Source: an uncultured Methanomicrobiales archaeon (GTDB taxonomy: Archaea; Halobacteriota; Methanomicrobia; Methanomicrobiales; Methanospirillaceae). Taken from it: a DNA stretch of 64,000 bases. The translations under genes were made by a program, and so were the position numbers. Within the stretch, counting starts at the first letter, position 1. Every line of letters starts with the position of its first letter. The stretch lies in contig CAIKOD010000038.1 of NCBI GenBank assembly GCA_903828975.1, positions 3,187 to 67,186 of the forward strand, given 5' to 3'. Shown in pieces: positions 8,181-47,326 of this stretch. The notes under the pieces are model-generated. The model ran no database searches. It was not told the origin of the DNA and saw nothing but the letters and a program-made list of their open reading frames with translations.

Positions 8181-8433
8181 AGCATTGTTGAAGCCCTCTC
8201 AAATCAATCTTGCAGATTAGTTATTCCAATAGTTAGTCACGCTCCCGGGGCTCATGGCCCGCCGCTGTGGCGACCCCGGTTGGGATAGGGATTGGCCATT
8301 ATTCTCTGAAATATTCAGTAATAATGAAGTTGAACCTTGCTCAAAGGATATCTTGCTGGGGTGGGACAGGGAGGGGGAAAACCCCCTCCTGTCTAGGTAT
8401 TTTATCTTCCTTTTTCAAAACACGCAGGGTTTC
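8181..8433 (-). mobile_element. MITE family 1, copy 1 (short body, reverse orientation)
   Basis: It starts 3 nt after the stop of the preceding gene. It contains the reverse-oriented conserved core (GCTCCCGGGGCTCATGGCCCGCCGCTGTGGCGACCCCGGTTGGGATAG) and the GGGAGGGGGAAAACCCCCTCC hairpin. Termini are AGCATTGTTGAAG / GGGTTTC. Confidence 0.75.
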
Positions 8434-8535
8434 CCATGAAACTGCTTGAACGAACCTAAAAGCAAGGAGATTATGAATGGGCATTTTCAATGGTTTGGGT
8501 GAGAACTCCCCGTTCATGCGTGTTTCAACAAAGCC
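8428..8535 (+). repeat. Two-hairpin module attached to the hairpin-A end of MITE copy 1
   Basis: TTTCCCATGAAA...GGGCATTTTCAATGG...GAGAACTCCCCGTTCATGCGTGTTTCAACAAAGCC. This is the same module as at 9233-9411, 27332-27446, 36698-36811, 41035-41139 and 47218-47326. Confidence 0.7.
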
Positions 8536-8985: not shown

Positions 8986-9411
8986 GGCTCTGTAGATATC
9001 CTTAAACGGGAAAAAAATTAACAGAACTGCTCATACAGGAGGTGTTTTACCCCTTCCCTGTCCCACCCCATTAAGATACTCTTAAGCAGGGTTTCAATCG
9101 ATTTATTAAATATTCCCGATGTTCCAAGACTTCATCTCTATTCCAACTGGGGTGCCTTTAGAGGCGGAGCGGAGCCCCAGGAACGTTGGAAAATTTCGGA
9201 ATAATCCTGAATTTAGTAAAATCCGGGTAGAGGATTTCCCATGAAAACAAACATGATGCCAAAAGGCCAGCAAGCAGACAATGAATGAAAATGCCAGGGG
9301 GGGATTTTAATATTAAATGCACGAACTGACCCCAATATAAGGAGATTTTGGACGATGCCTTTTCAATCGTCCGGGTGTGAACTTCCCGTTCATGTATGTT
9401 TCAACAGAGCG
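8986..9411 (+). mobile_element. MITE family 1, copy 2 (long form, partly decayed)
   Basis: GGCTCTGTAGATATCC...hairpin A (mutated)...core...GGATTTCCCATGAAAA...GTGAACTTCCCGTTCATGTATGTTTCAACAGAGCG. No clear TSD. Confidence 0.7.
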
Positions 9412-9489
9412 TGCTATGATCCGCGGGCTCATAGATGAGGATGAAAAAGCTGGGCTTTCAAGATTGCTACCTGAAGTTTTTCATACCAG

Positions 9490-9728: not shown

Positions 9729-12689
9729 ATGAATGACCCACCGTTGGATGAAAATGAAAATGTAACTGACATATTCATTTTGAGTACTGATGAAACGACG
9801 GTTCTTTTCCTTAAGGAGAACCTGGAACAGAGGGATTACCGTGTTACGGTTTTTACCGACGGTGCACAACTCAACGAAACTCTTCGTACAGGAAAACCAA
9901 ACCTCCTTATCTGTGACAGTTCGACCGAAGAAGAGGAGGGATTTGAAGTCTGCAGCCAGATCAAGGCTGACGAAGACCTCTGGTCTATTCCGGTCCTTAT
10001 TCTTACCGCTGCATCCACCATTGAGGGCCTCCTGGAGGTCCTTGACAGTAATGCCGATAATTTCATCGCGCCGCCCTATGATCTCCCTGATCACGTCCTG
10101 CTCATTGAAAGTATGCTCGCAACTCCTGTTGAGCGGCAGACTCCTGAACAGGTTAAAAAGCAGTTTAAGGTCAGCCATGACGACAGGACCTACGTTGTTG
10201 CTGCCAATAGGAGAAAACTCCTCGAATATCTTCTTTCGGCATTTGAGATCATGGTTAATAAATCCCAAACATTATCGCACGTAACGTCAGAACTCCGGGA
10301 ACGTTCTGAATCTGCAAGAGAACTGGAAAGGACTGTATCCGGGCAGCTCCAGGCCATCCAAACAATAAATGCGACGGTCCGGCAGAAAGAAGAAAAAATT
10401 ATCGCATTGACACGGCAGTGCGAGGAGCTGGAGAAGAGACTGGTACAAAAAACTGATGAGATCGAAAACCTTGTTCAGGAACGCGATGGTGATAAGAGTC
10501 TCATCAGCACCCATGATGAGACCATCCGCACCATGACCCTGGAACGAGAGGAGGTCCAGATTGCTCACCGTTTACAAACCGACGCACTCACCAGTCAGAT
10601 CTCCACTCTCACGGCAGAATCCGGTGCCCAAAAAACAAGTCTTGATACCGTGCAGCACGCACTGGGCGAGGAAACAACCCGTAGAGAGGCCCTTCAGAAG
10701 GCGCTCAGCGGTCTCACGTCCGAACGCGAGCAGCTGAAAACGGCCCTTGCTGCAGAAAAAGCCCGCGCAATATCTGCAGAACATGAAGTACAGGCGGTGA
10801 CTAAGGCAAAAGCGCAGTCTGCACAAGACCTGGCCCGGGCAATTACTGGTCTTGAGGAGACCTCAAAACAACAGGCTTCAGAGCTGACCCGGTTGAAGAG
10901 TGAACTGGAAGCGGAAACAAATCGCCGTGTTCTGACAGAAAACCAGGTGGTCTCACTCCAGCGGGAATTTGAACAATCTGAATTATCATATCGTTCTGAA
11001 ATCGAAACACTCAACCAGCAGGTTGGTACCCTGAAGGAAGCGCTTACGGCTTCGTCTGCGGCACTGGAAAAGGAAGAGAATACCACAAAATTACAAAAAG
11101 AGCGTCTTTCTGGAGTGATTGCAGAAAAGGAGAAAACCGAAGACCGGTTAGTATCCATATCAGCCGAACTCGCACAAGCCCGGTCTGCAGTTGCGTCCGG
11201 GGAACAGCAGATACAATCCCTGTCAGACAATCTTGAAGAAGCCGGTGCAGAGAAGGAAAAATCAGAACAAAAAGCAAAAACCCTGTCCGCTGCATTAGAA
11301 AAAGCACAGGATGAGATCGAAGCAGAGAGAGGCCAGCGCCGTACTATTGAAGAAACCCTTGACAGGACAACCCTCGAACATAACAATGCCTTCGGCTCCT
11401 TGCGCCAGGAATACGAGGATGTAAAGGCCGATCTTGACTTACGAAACGTGACTCTTGCACAACGGGAACGCGATCTTGATGCACTAACTGCAATCCGCGT
11501 AACGCTTGAAAAAGATCTGGATGTTGCAAGGACCAGGAACCAGGCACTCGGGAATGAGCTGAGTACGGCAGCACAGGAGTGGGGCCAGTCAGGAGAACAG
11601 GTGCAAACCCTTTCTGATGAACTGGAACAGGTGAACGCAGCACTTGAAACCGAACAGGGACTGCGAAGGACCGCTGAAGAAAAAGCGACAGTTGCGGCAG
11701 AGCGACAGGAAGACCTCGGACAGCAGCTCCGTATTGCGCATGATGAGATGGAACGTGCGAAACAAGATCATATTTTAAATACCCGGCAATTTAAAGAAGA
11801 ACTCGAAATCGCCGGTAACCAGATAAAATCCCTTGAAGCACATGTCAGTAAACTTGCAAGGGAAAAATTACACGTTGAACAGGAGGTCCAGACACTCACC
11901 TCTGAACTCGAACATGCCAGGACCTCGCTCGCTGATCAGCGTAAAAGCCATTCCGGCATTAATGGGGGAGATGCGGCTCCTGGCAATGAACGGTCCCCGG
12001 TGCAGCAGCCCCTCTTCCGGACAGATGAGGAGATTACCCCGATAGAGGAGGTTCAACTGGTCCTGTCAAAAGAGCAGGATCTCCCCGTGCCTGAGGGGCA
12101 CCTGTCTCACCTGGTCACCGGGGACAGTACTCCCGGATTGCAACAATCCCCGGTCCCACTAAAGGACCCGGCTTCCGGTGATATCCCCCGGGTATTCTCT
12201 GGTGTGATTCCCAGGGTGTCGGGGATTTCCGGTGCTGATGGCCTGTTTCCGGAACATGAACCCGCAGCAAAAAAGGCGGGTCCTGCACCAGTACCTGTAA
12301 AACCAAATGGACCAGCAGAAGAGGAAACCATCGGGGGACCTTCACCCGAAGGACCCCCTGCTGCGGATGATGGTCCTCAACCTGAAAAAGAGGCGGTGGA
12401 AGGACCGGAAAACCTCATAACCAGAGTACAATACGAGGGGCAATCCGATGAGACTCCTGAAGAAACAGGTGGGCCTGTTCCCAGCGGCGATATTTCATTT
12501 AACCGCAACCAGTGGCTTGACCTCCTCAAGTGGTCCCACCATTCGGACTCACTGTCCCAGGAACAGCGGCTTAGAATTGTCAGGATGGGCAGGCTGATCC
12601 AGAAAGACAGGAAACTGACGAACAAACAACAGGACCAGGTCAGGGAGATTCTTGCGTTCGTCTACTCGCTTGGGTACCGCCCTACGTAA
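9729..12689 (+). CDS. Receiver-like (degenerate CheY-like) domain fused to a ~600-aa coiled coil, a Pro-rich linker and a small C-terminal domain
   Basis: 986-aa ORF. The N-terminal ~125 aa has REC topology with LLICDSS (Asp) and ILTAAS (Thr). It has FIAPPYD where the canonical motif is K-P. The heptad-rich E/Q/K/R/L sequence carries a recurring (L/I)E(A/T)E..RR..E motif. Confidence 0.8.
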   Translation: MNDPPLDENENVTDIFILSTDETTVLFLKENLEQRDYRVTVFTDGAQLNETLRTGKPNLLICDSSTEEEEGFEVCSQIKADEDLWSIPVLILTAASTIEGLLEVLDSNADNFIAPPYDLPDHVLLIESMLATPVERQTPEQVKKQFKVSHDDRTYVVAANRRKLLEYLLSAFEIMVNKSQTLSHVTSELRERSESARELERTVSGQLQAIQTINATVRQKEEKIIALTRQCEELEKRLVQKTDEIENLVQERDGDKSLISTHDETIRTMTLEREEVQIAHRLQTDALTSQISTLTAESGAQKTSLDTVQHALGEETTRREALQKALSGLTSEREQLKTALAAEKARAISAEHEVQAVTKAKAQSAQDLARAITGLEETSKQQASELTRLKSELEAETNRRVLTENQVVSLQREFEQSELSYRSEIETLNQQVGTLKEALTASSAALEKEENTTKLQKERLSGVIAEKEKTEDRLVSISAELAQARSAVASGEQQIQSLSDNLEEAGAEKEKSEQKAKTLSAALEKAQDEIEAERGQRRTIEETLDRTTLEHNNAFGSLRQEYEDVKADLDLRNVTLAQRERDLDALTAIRVTLEKDLDVARTRNQALGNELSTAAQEWGQSGEQVQTLSDELEQVNAALETEQGLRRTAEEKATVAAERQEDLGQQLRIAHDEMERAKQDHILNTRQFKEELEIAGNQIKSLEAHVSKLAREKLHVEQEVQTLTSELEHARTSLADQRKSHSGINGGDAAPGNERSPVQQPLFRTDEEITPIEEVQLVLSKEQDLPVPEGHLSHLVTGDSTPGLQQSPVPLKDPASGDIPRVFSGVIPRVSGISGADGLFPEHEPAAKKAGPAPVPVKPNGPAEEETIGGPSPEGPPAADDGPQPEKEAVEGPENLITRVQYEGQSDETPEETGGPVPSGDISFNRNQWLDLLKWSHHSDSLSQEQRLRIVRMGRLIQKDRKLTNKQQDQVREILAFVYSLGYRPT

Positions 12690-12695
12690 TAATCA

Positions 12696-12701
12696 TTTTT
12701 T
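12696..12701 (+). terminator. Oligo-T tract after the coiled-coil gene
   Basis: A T6 run lies 7 nt after the stop codon. Archaeal intrinsic terminators are oligo-T tracts. Confidence 0.3.
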
Positions 12702-12914
12702 CCGGCGGCTATGAAAAACTCTGGGAAACCCTCACACCGGCAGGCTTTTCCTACTCATCTATGAGCCGATGGCTCACAGCACGCATACCAATACTGTCTG
12801 TTATCGGAACATCATGATCACTACACAGGAGATTCCCATGATGGAAACTATAATAGTTTCCCCGGTTGAGAGTCCTGAAAACGCCGATTGACCGTTAGTT
12901 ATATGGATTAAAAG

Positions 12915-15680
12915 ATGATTATGCGACGAACGATTTCACTGGTGATGTGCATGGCACTTCTTATCCTGGTTGTCCCGACACTGGGAGAAGCATTGCAGGA
13001 CGTCCCGCCCGGTGGCACGGTATTCATCGGTGAACAGGACCTGAATTTAACAGGACTCCCGTCAGGGACTACACTTACCTGGTATACCGGCACCCAGGTC
13101 GTGGGCCGGAGTGCCCCATCCGCTACCATAACGATTGGAGACAACGCCAGTTTTTATGTATCCCCTTCTGAATTTGCAAGACGCACAGGAAACTGGTACA
13201 TTGGGAACAGTGATCAGGTAGGATTTGCCGTCTGCGACCCCTCGCAGACAATTTCAGTCTACGACCAGGAGTCAGGTAGCGATAGTACCAACAAGAGTGC
13301 CACATCAGGTGATTTCCTGGCGTTCCGCATTGAAACAACGTTGAATATCATCCCGGTACAGCGGCCTGGTGCGGATGGTTTCTTAACCATCAGGGTGAGG
13401 GCCCCTGATGGGACCATATTTACCCGGCTCTACCAGGATGAAACTACCCTCCTTGATCTGGCAGACCTCGCACCGGATGCGATGCCGTGGTACTGGGTAC
13501 CAGTTGAAAAAGGCAGTGAGGATGGATGGTCTACCGGCTTCCGCGGCCCTGAACATAACCTTGCATATCCATCAGGCCTTTACACATTCTGGACGGAATC
13601 CAACCTGAACGGAATGAAGGACAACTATAAGGATATATCCGGCAATGATTTCACCGGCAGGACCGTCTCTGCAGTCCATAATGTCACGATAGAATCCAGT
13701 TCCGTCCGTATTGAGGTCAGCAACGAAACGGTTGTCCGGGGTGATGCATTTACCGTGACCATCAAAGGCAAGCCGGATAGTGCCTATTATCTCTGGGTCA
13801 AGGACACGAACTCCATGAGTGGCATGGCAGGGGACCAGCCCCCAAGCCTGATTCTCTCGCAGGAGGGTGTCAGGATGGACCCGAAGGGCGGGCCATGGCC
13901 AATAGGCCAGTATGTATCCGGGGGTTCGACCCGGACGATCCAGCAGGACGTCGCACAGTTTTACGGCCGTGAAAATGTAAGGGGAGTAGTGTACTATGCC
14001 TCCGTAACCCTTGACAGCAACGGAAACCGCACCGTGGGGTTTTCAACTACGGTGAATACCAAAGATGACGATTATACAATCCAGGTAGAGCGTCCGGAAC
14101 CATATGACCCGCCGGCATCAGACACCGGCCCGGGCAGGACGTTTCGGTCCGGGGACGTCGATATTTCTGTTGAAAAAGGAGATGTGGAAGTGGAAAGCCA
14201 GTCTGCCGTGAGAGGTGCCCGGACTTATTTCCTCGGCGAAGAGATCACCCTTGCCGGCACGAGTTCAGGATCCAACTTCACCTACCTGTTCATCACCGGT
14301 CCGAACCTGCCAAAAAACGGTGGGCAGATGACCGGACCGGGAACGCCATTCGACGTGGATAATCCGGAAACCTTTGCCAGGGCGGAGGTTATTAACAAAG
14401 AATGGGAATATCTCTGGCAGACCGCGAACCTCAACATTGATTCGGGGGCATACACCATCTACGCAGTTGCTGCTCCGGTCGACAAGGCATTCCTCACCGT
14501 TACCGAATATTCAACCGTATCAGTCATCATAAAGAAGCCATTCGTCAGTGCACAGGTGTCACCTTCTGTCGTAGCATCGGGTGACAAGTTGTTCATCCGT
14601 GGCATTGCTGCGGGCCAGCCTGAGAATGGTGTCGCGGTCTGGATATTCGGAAAGAACAGGGTGATCTACCAGACCCCGGGTGTCAATAGTGACGGTACCT
14701 TCGAGCAGGAAATTTCCCCGGGCACAACGAATGACATGGCTGCAGGCCAGTACTTCGTTGTTGTGCACCACCCGATGTATAACGAAGTATTCGACGTCTG
14801 GCCCACGTCTTCAGTGGCAGGTTATAACAACAAAGACCTTGTAGCAGGCAGCTACCCGGTGTATGGGAACACCCTGTTCCGGTTACAGGGTGAAGGCAGC
14901 CTCCAGGGGCCCGATGCAGCAGATGCACTTGTCCAGGCCCTCAACAACCAGGCTATTGATGACATTTACGCGAAGCTCCAGTTCCTTGTTGAAGTCCCTC
15001 ATATAGCGATTCTCCCGGTAGAGGAGAAACAGGTTGGCGACAGGTTCACGCTTGCGGGTACTACGAATCTTGCAATCGACGATACGATCCTCGTTGAGGT
15101 TATTTCCTCGTCATTCGAGCCAACCACGAAGACAGGGAGTGGAGAATTCGGCGGGATATCCGGGACCGTAATGGTCCGGAAGGGGACAGATGGCCTTAAC
15201 ACGTGGGCATTCCCCGTCGATACAGCGGCGTTCCGGCCCGATGAGTACATCGTTTCGGTATCAGGAGTAACGGTTGATGCACAGGCATCAACACGGTTCA
15301 ATCTAGTCGAATTCAACCCGGAAACACACAGGACCGTTGCGCCCGAAGAGGTGAACCTGACTGGACCAGATACCTCGATCAACGACACAACACCCGCGGA
15401 CTCAGCAACGGGTGACGAGGATCCTGGTCCAGGTTCTAACAAAATCAGTGTCAGCGCAAAGTCATCACGCCTGGCCAGTGTCATCGGGTCCAAACCAGCA
15501 ACCGTTCCTGTCACCGTGACAACCACTCCGCAGGTCATCAATATAACAACCACCGTACTTCCCGCCAGGACGACCTCCCCAGCTACCCGGCCAACCGCCC
15601 AGCCCGGATTTGGTACCGTGATTGCCCTGATAAGTCTCGGTATGGCTGCATTCCATGTTGTGCGGGAACACAGAACATAA
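12915..15680 (+). CDS. S-layer / surface glycoprotein with PGF-CTERM sorting signal
   Basis: Signal peptide and many N-x-S/T sequons, followed by a T/P-rich linker. The C-terminal PGFGTVIALISLGMAAFHVVREHRT is the PGF motif plus a TM helix and basic tail. The N-terminal domain is paralogous to 28360-29343. Confidence 0.85.
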   Translation: MIMRRTISLVMCMALLILVVPTLGEALQDVPPGGTVFIGEQDLNLTGLPSGTTLTWYTGTQVVGRSAPSATITIGDNASFYVSPSEFARRTGNWYIGNSDQVGFAVCDPSQTISVYDQESGSDSTNKSATSGDFLAFRIETTLNIIPVQRPGADGFLTIRVRAPDGTIFTRLYQDETTLLDLADLAPDAMPWYWVPVEKGSEDGWSTGFRGPEHNLAYPSGLYTFWTESNLNGMKDNYKDISGNDFTGRTVSAVHNVTIESSSVRIEVSNETVVRGDAFTVTIKGKPDSAYYLWVKDTNSMSGMAGDQPPSLILSQEGVRMDPKGGPWPIGQYVSGGSTRTIQQDVAQFYGRENVRGVVYYASVTLDSNGNRTVGFSTTVNTKDDDYTIQVERPEPYDPPASDTGPGRTFRSGDVDISVEKGDVEVESQSAVRGARTYFLGEEITLAGTSSGSNFTYLFITGPNLPKNGGQMTGPGTPFDVDNPETFARAEVINKEWEYLWQTANLNIDSGAYTIYAVAAPVDKAFLTVTEYSTVSVIIKKPFVSAQVSPSVVASGDKLFIRGIAAGQPENGVAVWIFGKNRVIYQTPGVNSDGTFEQEISPGTTNDMAAGQYFVVVHHPMYNEVFDVWPTSSVAGYNNKDLVAGSYPVYGNTLFRLQGEGSLQGPDAADALVQALNNQAIDDIYAKLQFLVEVPHIAILPVEEKQVGDRFTLAGTTNLAIDDTILVEVISSSFEPTTKTGSGEFGGISGTVMVRKGTDGLNTWAFPVDTAAFRPDEYIVSVSGVTVDAQASTRFNLVEFNPETHRTVAPEEVNLTGPDTSINDTTPADSATGDEDPGPGSNKISVSAKSSRLASVIGSKPATVPVTVTTTPQVINITTTVLPARTTSPATRPTAQPGFGTVIALISLGMAAFHVVREHRT

Positions 15681-27196: not shown

Positions 27197-27331
27197 ACCT
27201 CCCCTTTAGGCTTTCCGGGCATAAGATGGTTGCCGTATTTTTTCTGAACAGAAATGTTCCGGTAACGACCTTGAAATTTCGACCCGCGGGTATGAATGAA
27301 AAGGTCCATGGTACCGGGTTTCACATTTTTT

Positions 27332-27696
27332 GGGCTTGTTGAAAACACATATGAACGGGCGCTCACAACCTGATCATAAAAAAGGCTGGTTCAAAATCTC
27401 CTTTTATTAGGATCCGATCAGGCATTTAATAGGAAAGTGCGGTGTTGTTGAAAAACACTCAATCTGTCTTGTTGATTGAGTTATCCCAACATTAGTCATG
27501 CTCCCGGCTCATTGCCCGCTGCTTTGGCGGCCCCGGTTGGGATAGAGATGAAGTCGTGGAACATCTGGAATATTTAAAAAATCAATTGAAACCATTGCTT
27601 AAGAGTATCTTATTGGGGGTAGGGCCGGGAGGGGGTGAAACCCCCTCCTGTTAATGTATTCCTCGTTTTTTAAAAACTATGCAGGATTTCAACACG
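27332..27696 (-). mobile_element. MITE family 1, copy 4 (long form, reverse orientation)
   Basis: GGGCTTGTTGAAAACACATATGAACGGGCGCTCAC (reverse of the hairpin module), then the reverse core, GGGAGGGGGTGAAACCCCCTCC and GGATTTCAACACG. It lies upstream of the MFS gene. No TSD seen. Confidence 0.75.
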
Positions 27697-27764
27697 TCCA
27701 TCTTTTAAAGAACATATGCTGCCCGGGCCATTCAATCATATCGCAAATCCGGGAATATCCAGGG

Positions 27765-36697: not shown

Positions 36698-36811
36698 TCG
36701 AGAGGGGTTCCCATGAAAATGCCTGAACTGACCCCAAAATAAAGAGATTTTGAACGAGCCATTTTCATTGTAAGGGTGTGAACTTCCCGTTCATGTATGT
36801 TTCAATAAAGT
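36698..36811 (+). repeat. Two-hairpin module of MITE family 1 (5'-truncated copy)
   Basis: GAGAGGGGTTCCCATGAAAATGCC...GCCATTTTCATTG...GTGAACTTCCCGTTCATGTATGTTTCAATAAAGTC. It abuts the stop of the flavoprotein gene. Confidence 0.65.
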
Positions 36812-40765: not shown

Positions 40766-40780
40766 AAGAAGGGAAAAATA

Positions 40781-41139
40781 GGCTCTGTAGAAACCCAAAC
40801 CCTGCATATTTAAAAAAAGAGGGGATACGTAAGACCAGGAGGGGGTTTCACCCCCTCCCTGCCCCATCCCCGATACGATATTCATTGACAGGGTTCAATT
40901 GGGACATTCAAGGAAATTTCAGAAATTTGAAGATCATTCCTTATCCCAATCGGGGTCGCCAAAGCGGCGGTCCATGAGCCCCGGGAGCGTGACGAATTTT
41001 TGGAATTACCAATCTGCAAGATAGATTTGAGAGGATTTCCCATGAAAATGTCCGAACGAGCCGTAATCTAAAGAGATTTGAAACAGGCATTTTCATGGTT
41101 GGGGTGTGAACACCCGTTCATGTGTGTTTCTACAGAGCG
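40781..41139 (+). mobile_element. MITE family 1, copy 5 (long form) with perfect 8-bp TSD
   Basis: GGCTCTGTAGAAACCC...GTTTCTACAGAGCG is flanked by GAAAAATA at 40773-40780 and at 41140-41147. It lies between two convergent kinase genes. Confidence 0.9.
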
Positions 41140-41251
41140 GAAAAATAAGATTCCGGTTCCCCCCGGGTGTCTGCCACAGGGAATCCAATAGTGTAAAAGG
41201 ACTACTCCTTCAGTATACCAGGAACAGGTGTGGGCTTTCCTGATCCCATTT

Positions 41252-46968: not shown

Positions 46969-47326
46969 GGCCTTGTTGAAATCCTATATCAAATAAAAAA
47001 ATTAACAGAACTGCTCAGACAGGAGGGGGTTTCACCCCCTCCCTGTCCCACCCCATTAAGATACTCTTGGACAGGGTTCAATTGGGGCATTCAAAGAAAA
47101 ATTTCAGAGATTTGGAGATCATACCCTATCCTAACCGGGGCCGCCAAAGCGGCGGGCCATGAGCCCCGGGAGCGTGACTAAATTTTGGAATAACCTAATG
47201 TACAAAATAGATTGAGAGCATTTCCCATGTAAATACCTGATCGGCCCCTGATGTAAAGTGATTTAGAACGAGGCATTTTTCAATTGTCCGGGAATGAACT
47301 TCCCATTCATGTGTTTCAACAGAGCC
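46969..47326 (+). mobile_element. MITE family 1, copy 7 (long form), TSD matches 7 of 8
   Basis: GGCCTTGTTGAAATCC...GTGTTTCAACAGAGCC is flanked by TTATGTTC (46961-46968) and TTATGGTC (47327-47334). Confidence 0.85.

Follow-up and report, generated by a model that had tools for sequence, protein, structure and literature searches.

The window analysed here is a 64,000 nt stretch of DNA (contig C38, positions 3187-67186) from a Methanoregula-like metagenome-assembled genome of 2.58 Mb in 186 contigs, referred to below as G000. Between positions 40773 and 41147 it contains a composite repeat in which one small element lies inside the terminal repeat of another. The outer element, or host, is a miniature inverted-repeat transposable element (MITE) on the forward strand, with a left terminal repeat GGCTCTGTAGAAACCC (40781-40796), a body and an inner right repeat GAGAGGATTTC (41029-41039), together spanning 40781-41039; the remainder of the right repeat, nine bases at its outer edge (TACAGAGCG), is at 41131-41139, also on the forward strand. 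It is bounded by two copies of an 8-bp target duplication, GAAAAATA, at 40773-40780 and 41140-41147, attributable to the host; at the orthologous site in genomes G004 and G007 the element is absent and the octamer is single. The right terminal repeat is split, between TTTC and TACAGAGCG, by a 91-nt segment (41040-41130) that starts CCATGAAAATG and finishes GTTCATGTGTGTTTC, and which is termed the module; it lies on the reverse strand in the sense of the parent transposase discussed below.

A preliminary description of this sequence had placed an extra segment inside the right terminal repeat, flanked by a duplicated TTTC and folding into two stems, and each of these features was found. TTTC is present on the forward strand at the inner junction (41036-41039) and again at the outer junction (41127-41130), where it constitutes the final four bases of the module as delimited. 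The first stem pairs 41040-41050 with 41088-41098 over 11 bp, and the second pairs TGAAC (41107-41111) with GTTCA (41116-41120); the DNA fold of the module has a z-score of -2.9 relative to shuffled sequences. When the ten host copies found in the window are aligned, a short form is apparent in which ...GGATTTC is joined directly to WACAGAGCC, and the module is found between these two parts at 41040, 47225 and 9239, and in the mirror position, within the left repeat of a reversed copy, at 8434.

The host is an IS5-type MITE. Its termini are shared with an autonomous, module-free insertion sequence (IS) of 1012 bp, carrying an IS5-family DDE_Tnp_1 open reading frame (ORF), which is found in G004 (L034, 1053-2064) and G005 (L039) and as fragments in G000 (contigs C41 and C103). 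The module, previously described as a second MITE nested within the first, is of a different kind. Its two tips, CCATG... and ...GTGTGTTTC, do not form an inverted repeat; the 11-bp inverted repeat is terminal at one side and 27 nt inward at the other, and only the 4-nt core is repeated, hence the module has neither the inverted repeats at its tips nor the fixed-length target duplication of a classical MITE. As classical terminal inverted repeats are missing, it is a miniature IS110 derivative instead of a MITE in the strict sense, and the repeated TTTC does not represent a classical target-site duplication but the short core which donor and target have in common when IS110-type elements recombine.

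The module probably arose by deletion from an insertion sequence of the IS110 family, to which the name IS110-A is given here; we would put the probability of this at about 0.85. IS110-A is approximately 1.5 kb long and encodes a 419 aa DEDD/Tnp recombinase, for which the match of copy L143 to PF02371 (E = 2.9e-26) and the N-terminal motif CGIDVHK point to membership of the IS110 family. Full copies with the 419 aa ORF are found in five different flanking contexts in related genomes (L154/L153, L173, L152, L085 and L155), all of which start directly after GAAAC; where the right end is readable (L154/L153, L173 and L152) it is ATTTTCAT(G/A)G, then GAA(A). Elements of the IS1111 subgroup are marked by subterminal inverted repeats together with a guide RNA located downstream of the recombinase gene; IS110-A does have an inverted repeat, CCATGAAAAT/ATTTTCATGG, but its structured RNA precedes the gene, which is followed by just ~35-50 nt of non-coding sequence. 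On contig C58 of G000, where the resident copy is situated, GGCTCTGTAGAAAC is followed across the junction by ACACATGGACGGGACGTTCACACCCGAACCATGAAAATCG..., a leader of ~195 nt and an ORF that begins MSIERRKVCGIDVHK. Immediately after GAAAC in this copy, ~40 nt are the reverse complement of the second hairpin and the 3' stem arm of the module.

Aligned to its parent, the module matches the left end over ~40-70 nt and the right end over the last 10-15 nt; in the window copy these correspond to 41130 down to ~41060 and to 41050-41040 (CATTTTCATGG on the reverse strand), respectively. What has been kept is the left end, including the small hairpin and the internal CCATGAAAAT, and the last 11-15 nt of the right end (ATTTTCATGG), with neither the recombinase gene nor the guide RNA. 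With 83 well-defined modules to one truncated IS110-A in G000, the module has both ends of its parent, no gene and more copies than the parent, as befits a non-autonomous derivative. In G021, which belongs to another genus, the module has conserved ends and an unrelated middle, which fits independent deletion derivatives.

The conservation of two stems across genera, with a variable loop, and the position of copies adjoining gene ends could also be accounted for if the module were a domesticated structured RNA, such as a terminator or small RNA, maintained by selection and not mobile. The conserved parts are exactly the recombination ends and core of the parent, however, and a search of Rfam at gathering thresholds found no family matching the window. 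We regard such a role as very unlikely to explain the module, although it would not be exclusive of descent from IS110-A.

BLAST searches of G000 gave ~220 matches to the host body and ~100 to the module. Two length classes make up the 83 well-defined modules, a short form of 91-95 nt (61 copies) and a long form of 158-169 nt (22 copies). The suggestion that TTTC might flank every copy held for most of them: it precedes 68 and forms the end of 75. Modules are found at 36 right ends and 40 left ends of hosts, with ~24 having no host body within 60 nt, many of which are at contig ends or beside truncated hosts. The CCATG end is always directed towards the host body, such that polarity relative to the repeat is constant, and the junctions are uniform even though the host arms differ (GGGTTTC, GGATTTC and GCATTTC all being present). 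Insertion is therefore specific for both site and orientation, with a short core at each junction.

Orientation-specific insertion 3' of a tetranucleotide, subterminal hairpins and the lack of a long duplication are likewise features of palindrome-associated elements of the IS200/IS605 type, which would be inserted as single strands 3' of TTTC by a Y1 transposase. No such transposase (PF01797) was detected in six module-bearing genomes, in a search that gave matches in control genomes, the only related hit being a single-copy, borderline TnpB-like zinc-ribbon match. Furthermore, TTTC is common in the genome, yet essentially all the copies are in the context of the IS5-type repeat, and the actual parent is an IS110-family element. 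This candidate was rejected, its probability being close to negligible.

The site preference is probably explained by the 5' leader of IS110-A. A consensus built from six aligned IS110-A leaders (~195 nt) folds into a 13-bp closing stem around two modules, each composed of a stem, an internal loop and a hairpin. Pairing is maintained in 94% of cells, as against 33-41% when the partners are slid, and seven pairs are changed on both sides, compared with 0-2 in controls. The resulting fold resembles a bridge RNA with two internal loops. In the first loop, the 5' strand, GAGAG(G/C)ATTTT, equals the inner arm of the host, GAGAGGATTTC or CAGAGCATTTC, just inside the insertion point, whilst CUGUWGAAAS, on the opposite side of the loop, corresponds to the outer portion of the host's terminal repeat. 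Read in the parent sense, the 3' strand of this loop repeats the nine bases to the left of the insertion point: loop strand and left flank are, respectively, TGTAGAAAG and TGTAGAAAC in L154, CAATGAAAG and CAATGAAAC in L152, TTTAGAAAG and ATTAGAAAC in L173, TGTTGAAAC and TGTAGAAAC in C58, and TGTAGAAAG and TGTTGAAAC in L085. The loop strands change with the target across six copies occupying five distinct target sites, including a four-base change (CAAT) in L152. The L152 copy (G120:C132) sits in TTTTTCCAATGAAAC^GAAACGCACC, a site resembling the start of the module or the left end of a second IS110-type element, IS110-B, and not the IS5 repeat; the change of its guide to CAATGAAAG accords with this different site. 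The first loop thus matches, and covaries with, the target on both sides of the core, as would a target-binding loop. The proposal that the module is an independent small element with a preference for the host terminal repeat therefore gains support, the putative guide RNA of the parent IS110-family element matching that repeat.

The second loop appears to recognise the donor. Its strand AU(G/A)GGAAA matches the element's own right end and core, being ATGGGAAA where the right end is CATGG followed by GAAA (L152), and ATAGGAAA where it is CATAG followed by GAA(A) (L154 and L173).

The histories of module and host are uncoupled. Distances between different segments of the host are intercorrelated (Mantel r = 0.12-0.49, p < 0.005, with none of 200 permutations as high), as opposed to those between module and host (r = 0.014, p = 0.41), and identical modules are found on hosts 20-40% divergent and at opposite ends. 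The module at 41040 is identical to those on contigs C105 (at a right end), C4 and C56 (both at left ends), the hosts of which differ from that in the window by 28-36%. One orthologous host copy is filled in G000 (contig C54) and module-free in G004 (L115), the flanks being 91-93% identical. A second candidate pair of filled and empty sites, C78 and L063, was rejected, as the G000 copy has a truncated end. The module is also found apart from its usual host, on a truncated IS5-type IS in G021, in the genome of which no host body was detected; this carrier (L033, G021:C150, 1331-2057) measures 727 bp and bears, at its far end, a module whose loop differs.

These observations bear on the alternative that a MITE with the module at one end, or at both, was the ancestral state, the short forms arising by deletion between the (G)TTTC repeats, aided by the hairpins. 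Short direct repeats around a hairpin-rich segment do favour slippage, and two elements in G000 have modules at both ends (C56 10247-10693 and C134 162-672). Against this, there is no module in the autonomous IS5-type IS, nor in any host copy of the sister genomes G001, G008 and G009; the module and host trees are uncoupled, with identical modules on hosts 20-40% apart; and the ends of the module are those of an IS110-family element, copies of which have moved to unrelated sites. In the same three sister genomes, no close relative of the IS110-A or IS110-B recombinases was found. The preliminary description had held that a module confined to its host, with a congruent phylogeny, would indicate such an ancestral long form; this outcome did not arise, because the phylogenies are incongruent and there is a second carrier in another genus. 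We consider the deletion scenario highly improbable.

Alternatively, the module may have entered once and then spread by gene conversion or template switching among copies and ends. There is an association (Mantel r = 0.17, p = 0.002) between module subfamily and the outer base of the repeat, W, which is T throughout subfamily 'a'; this suggests that module and outer repeat sometimes move together. There are also more than 200 homologous copies in the genome, and euryarchaea are often polyploid. The homology beside the module, however, is short (4-7 nt inwards, 9-14 nt outwards), the junctions are uniform, with TTTC followed by CCATG, on arms of differing sequence, and a dedicated recombinase with a matching guide exists. 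Recombination may add to the homogenisation of modules, but leaves their site unexplained, and is unlikely to have been their principal means of spread.

Derivation from IS110-A suggests the following mechanism, based on what is known of the family. IS110-A would insert in a single orientation at GGRTTTC^WACAGAGCC in the terminal repeat of the IS5-type IS and its MITE, the target stretch being GAGAGGATTTCWACAGAGCC with insertion at TTTC^W, and a short core, TTTC/GAAA, would be left at both junctions. Since the two host repeats are inverted copies, either end would be open to insertion whilst polarity remained constant. A circular intermediate would be expected, the junction of which, for the module or for IS110-A, would read ...CATTTTCATGG-GAAAC-ACACATGAAC.... 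The module could be mobilised in trans by the resident IS110-A through its retained donor ends, and could also be carried along whenever an IS5-type transposase moves the host MITE. Target duplications were dropped as proof of such co-mobilisation, as insertion into an already resident host gives an identical picture; a better hint is a composite of host plus module, 94% identical, at another locus (C103).

Several observations weigh against this account. The copy on C58 is the sole IS110-A in G000, and its ORF is ended by the contig end after 262 codons, whilst G004 contains ~88 candidate modules yet no match to the recombinase. In C58 and L085, guide and resident target are unlike at the W position. 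A donor guide for the left end was looked for in the IS110-A leaders and not found, and an Rfam scan covering the IS110-B locus L138 gave only a chance U4atac match and no family. Metagenome contigs on the locus were uninformative, the repeats being fragmented in unitigs, and contained only the ends of other copies, with no locus-specific excision joint or circle. Finally, the module subfamily that includes the window copy always adjoins TACAGAG, whereas such T-type ends account for only ~20-25% of module-free ends, and the two ends of one host are not linked in the comparison of T-type and A-type repeats. Simple insertion does not predict the TACAGAG link, which would require a guide variant with such a preference or else a degree of joint transfer of module and outer repeat; GUAGAAA, in L085 and L154, and GUUGAAA, in C58, are candidate guide variants.

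The long modules hold a separately nested third element, a derivative of IS110-B. They equal the short form plus ~65-70 nt after CCATGAAAA (9248-9317 in the window), and the additional sequence corresponds to the IS110-B left end fused to the final ~12 nt of that element. On contig C97 it is inverted in the opposite stem arm, the equivalent position relative to a palindromic target, and the derivative is also found in a different repeat, CATGAAAATTTTGGATCCAACAACGCAG. It is additionally seen in the context CATGAAAA followed by TTTTGGATCCAACAACGCAG (G000:C138 ~572-646, C175 ~18157+ and C80 553-628; L150 1190-1290), which suggests a second family of IS110-B targets.

An intact IS110-B lies at G000:C168:112-1698 (L138/L147), with a 424 aa ORF at 401-1672. 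Its product matches PF01548 (4e-28) and PF02371 (3e-26), and the IS621 and ISCro4 recombinases in the PDB, and is 38-42% identical to those of IS110-A (42% over 411 aa). Because the two halves of a long module, 5' and 3', flank this copy, it was considered as the module's parent and rejected: it is a separate element at CCATGAAAA^TGCC, because copies in G070, G010 and G020 end at TTTTCATTNGAAA and have unrelated right flanks. The IS110-B leader has an 11-bp closing stem, GGATGGGTAAG/CTTACCCATCC; by eye, a donor-like strand, ATTGGAAAT, matches the right end CATTGGAAA, whilst the target guides match the module stem only partly, and a simple k-mer search of the leader for guides gave no clear result.

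In L173 (G020:C179, 1-320), IS110-A is inserted exactly after the IS110-B right end (TTTTCATTAGAAAC), with the guide TTTAGAAAG; therefore IS110-A and IS110-B also target each other's ends. Tentatively, and at somewhat less than even odds, these elements may form a living three-level chain of RNA-guided parasitism, in which the IS5-type MITE is invaded at its terminal repeat by IS110-A, a 92-nt derivative of which has been repeatedly mobilised in trans, the stem of this derivative serving in turn as the programmed target of IS110-B and its ~65-70-nt derivative.

The remaining copies in the window repeat this arrangement with variations. As the preliminary description had recognised, a module (8434-8526, reverse strand) is attached to the opposite end of one host: it lies in the left repeat of a reversed copy (host 8190-8433), with its junction and its polarity relative to the repeat unchanged. 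The list of long copies given there stood for the right-repeat modules at 41040 and at 47225-47317 (reverse strand, in host copy 46969-47326). The copy at 8986-9411 does carry a module in its right repeat (9239-9402, reverse strand, a long form of 164 nt), but 70 nt of it (9248-9317, forward strand), which had been missed, are the separate third-tier IS110-B derivative, nested at CCATGAAAA^TGCC of the module stem. The last, 27332-27696, proved to be of another kind, combining a complete host repeat with a 5'-truncated long module (27342-27433, forward strand) that has its own outer repeat, an atypical arrangement beside the complete host copy; within 27300-27700 the complete host copy is followed directly by GCACTTTCCTATTAAA, the 3' part of the module and a second outer repeat, with no visible target duplication. 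For a further module, at 36711-36803 on the reverse strand, the host right arm is reduced to ~15 nt on the upstream side (GATCGAGAGGGGTTC), and the downstream flank is AATAAAGTC.

Two other observations concern the surroundings of these repeats. A palindromic repeat, GTGCTATGAGCC-N-GGCTCATAGATGAG, adjoins the outer tip of the IS5-type repeat at 9403-9452 and 12741-12784 in the window, at ~1023-1052 in L034 and in many G000 copies, and is also found beside the autonomous IS5-type IS; it may be a preferred IS5-type target, or another small element. On contig C136 of G000 (11557-12987), 1431 bp between left-type and right-type IS5 repeats contain a split IS630/Tc1-like transposase ORF, parts of the host MITE and a module, and represent either a nest or a captured segment.

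Recombinases guided by bridge RNAs have been described for IS621 and other IS110-family elements (Durrant et al. 2024, PMC11208160; Hiraizumi et al. 2024, PMC11208158). The present elements share with IS621 a DEDD and Tnp recombinase, IS110-B matching the IS621 and ISCro4 sequences in the PDB; a 5' leader with two internal loops, the strands of which match target and donor on opposite strands and covary, in the arrangement described when read in module orientation; and a single insertion orientation with a short core at both junctions. They differ in their archaeal, Methanoregula-like host, in a repeated core of 4 nt (TTTC/GAAA) in place of a CT dinucleotide, in a longer recombinase (419-424 aa), in having a derivative of 91-95 nt, devoid of gene and guide, at ~100 copies, and in that one donor guide was not located.

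The IS110/IS1111 elements IS4321 and IS5075 are known to occupy a fixed place in the repeats of Tn21-type transposons; the guide RNAs of IS110/IS1111 elements were described in 2024 (PMC11208160, PMC11187229). The resemblance lies in an IS110/IS1111-type insertion at a fixed position and orientation within another transposon's terminal repeat, at either end, whilst those cases are autonomous, few in copy number and have the guide (seekRNA) 3' of the gene. In the present case, the guide is on the 5' side, an IS5-type MITE is targeted and derivatives outnumber the parent by ~100:1. MITEPpu9, a MITE-like unit tied to the IS110-family element ISPpu9 of Pseudomonas putida, is likewise a non-autonomous unit between IS110-family ends, thought to be moved in trans by the transposase; it contains a small RNA gene and is present in eight copies in REP sequences (PMC12288879), in contrast to the cargo-free module, which is present at ~100 copies in transposon repeats and is itself targeted by a second IS110-type element. 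Archaeal ISs were surveyed in 2026; a Methanoregula genome with a very high IS content is noted there, whereas the present system is not mentioned. Hence RNA-guided insertion of IS110 elements into the repeats of other transposons is already known, whilst the archaeal setting, a gene-less derivative of ~92 nt at ~100 copies per genome and the stacking of three elements are new, the 4-nt core being a further difference.

These elements explain a large share of the repeat load in these uncultured methanogens, with ~220 host copies and ~100 modules in 2.58 Mb. When such genomes are annotated, the composite repeats should not be taken as single families, as they consist of three unrelated mobile elements stacked upon one another; the splitting of the IS5-type repeat by the module may, in addition, alter the mobility of the host MITE. 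The module illustrates how short the retained donor sequence can be in a derivative that nevertheless spread, one end contributing ~40-70 nt and the other 11-15 nt, and a single leader scaffold provides six copies covering five distinct guide-target pairs. IS110-A and IS110-B encode orthologues, 38-42% identical, that operate alongside one another at different sites; both are candidates for programmable recombination by archaeal enzymes. If the identical modules reflect current mobilisation in trans, they would represent a natural minimal-donor experiment for bridge recombinases in an archaeon, and the preference at the W position would mirror distinct guide variants, each serving its own lineage of derivatives.
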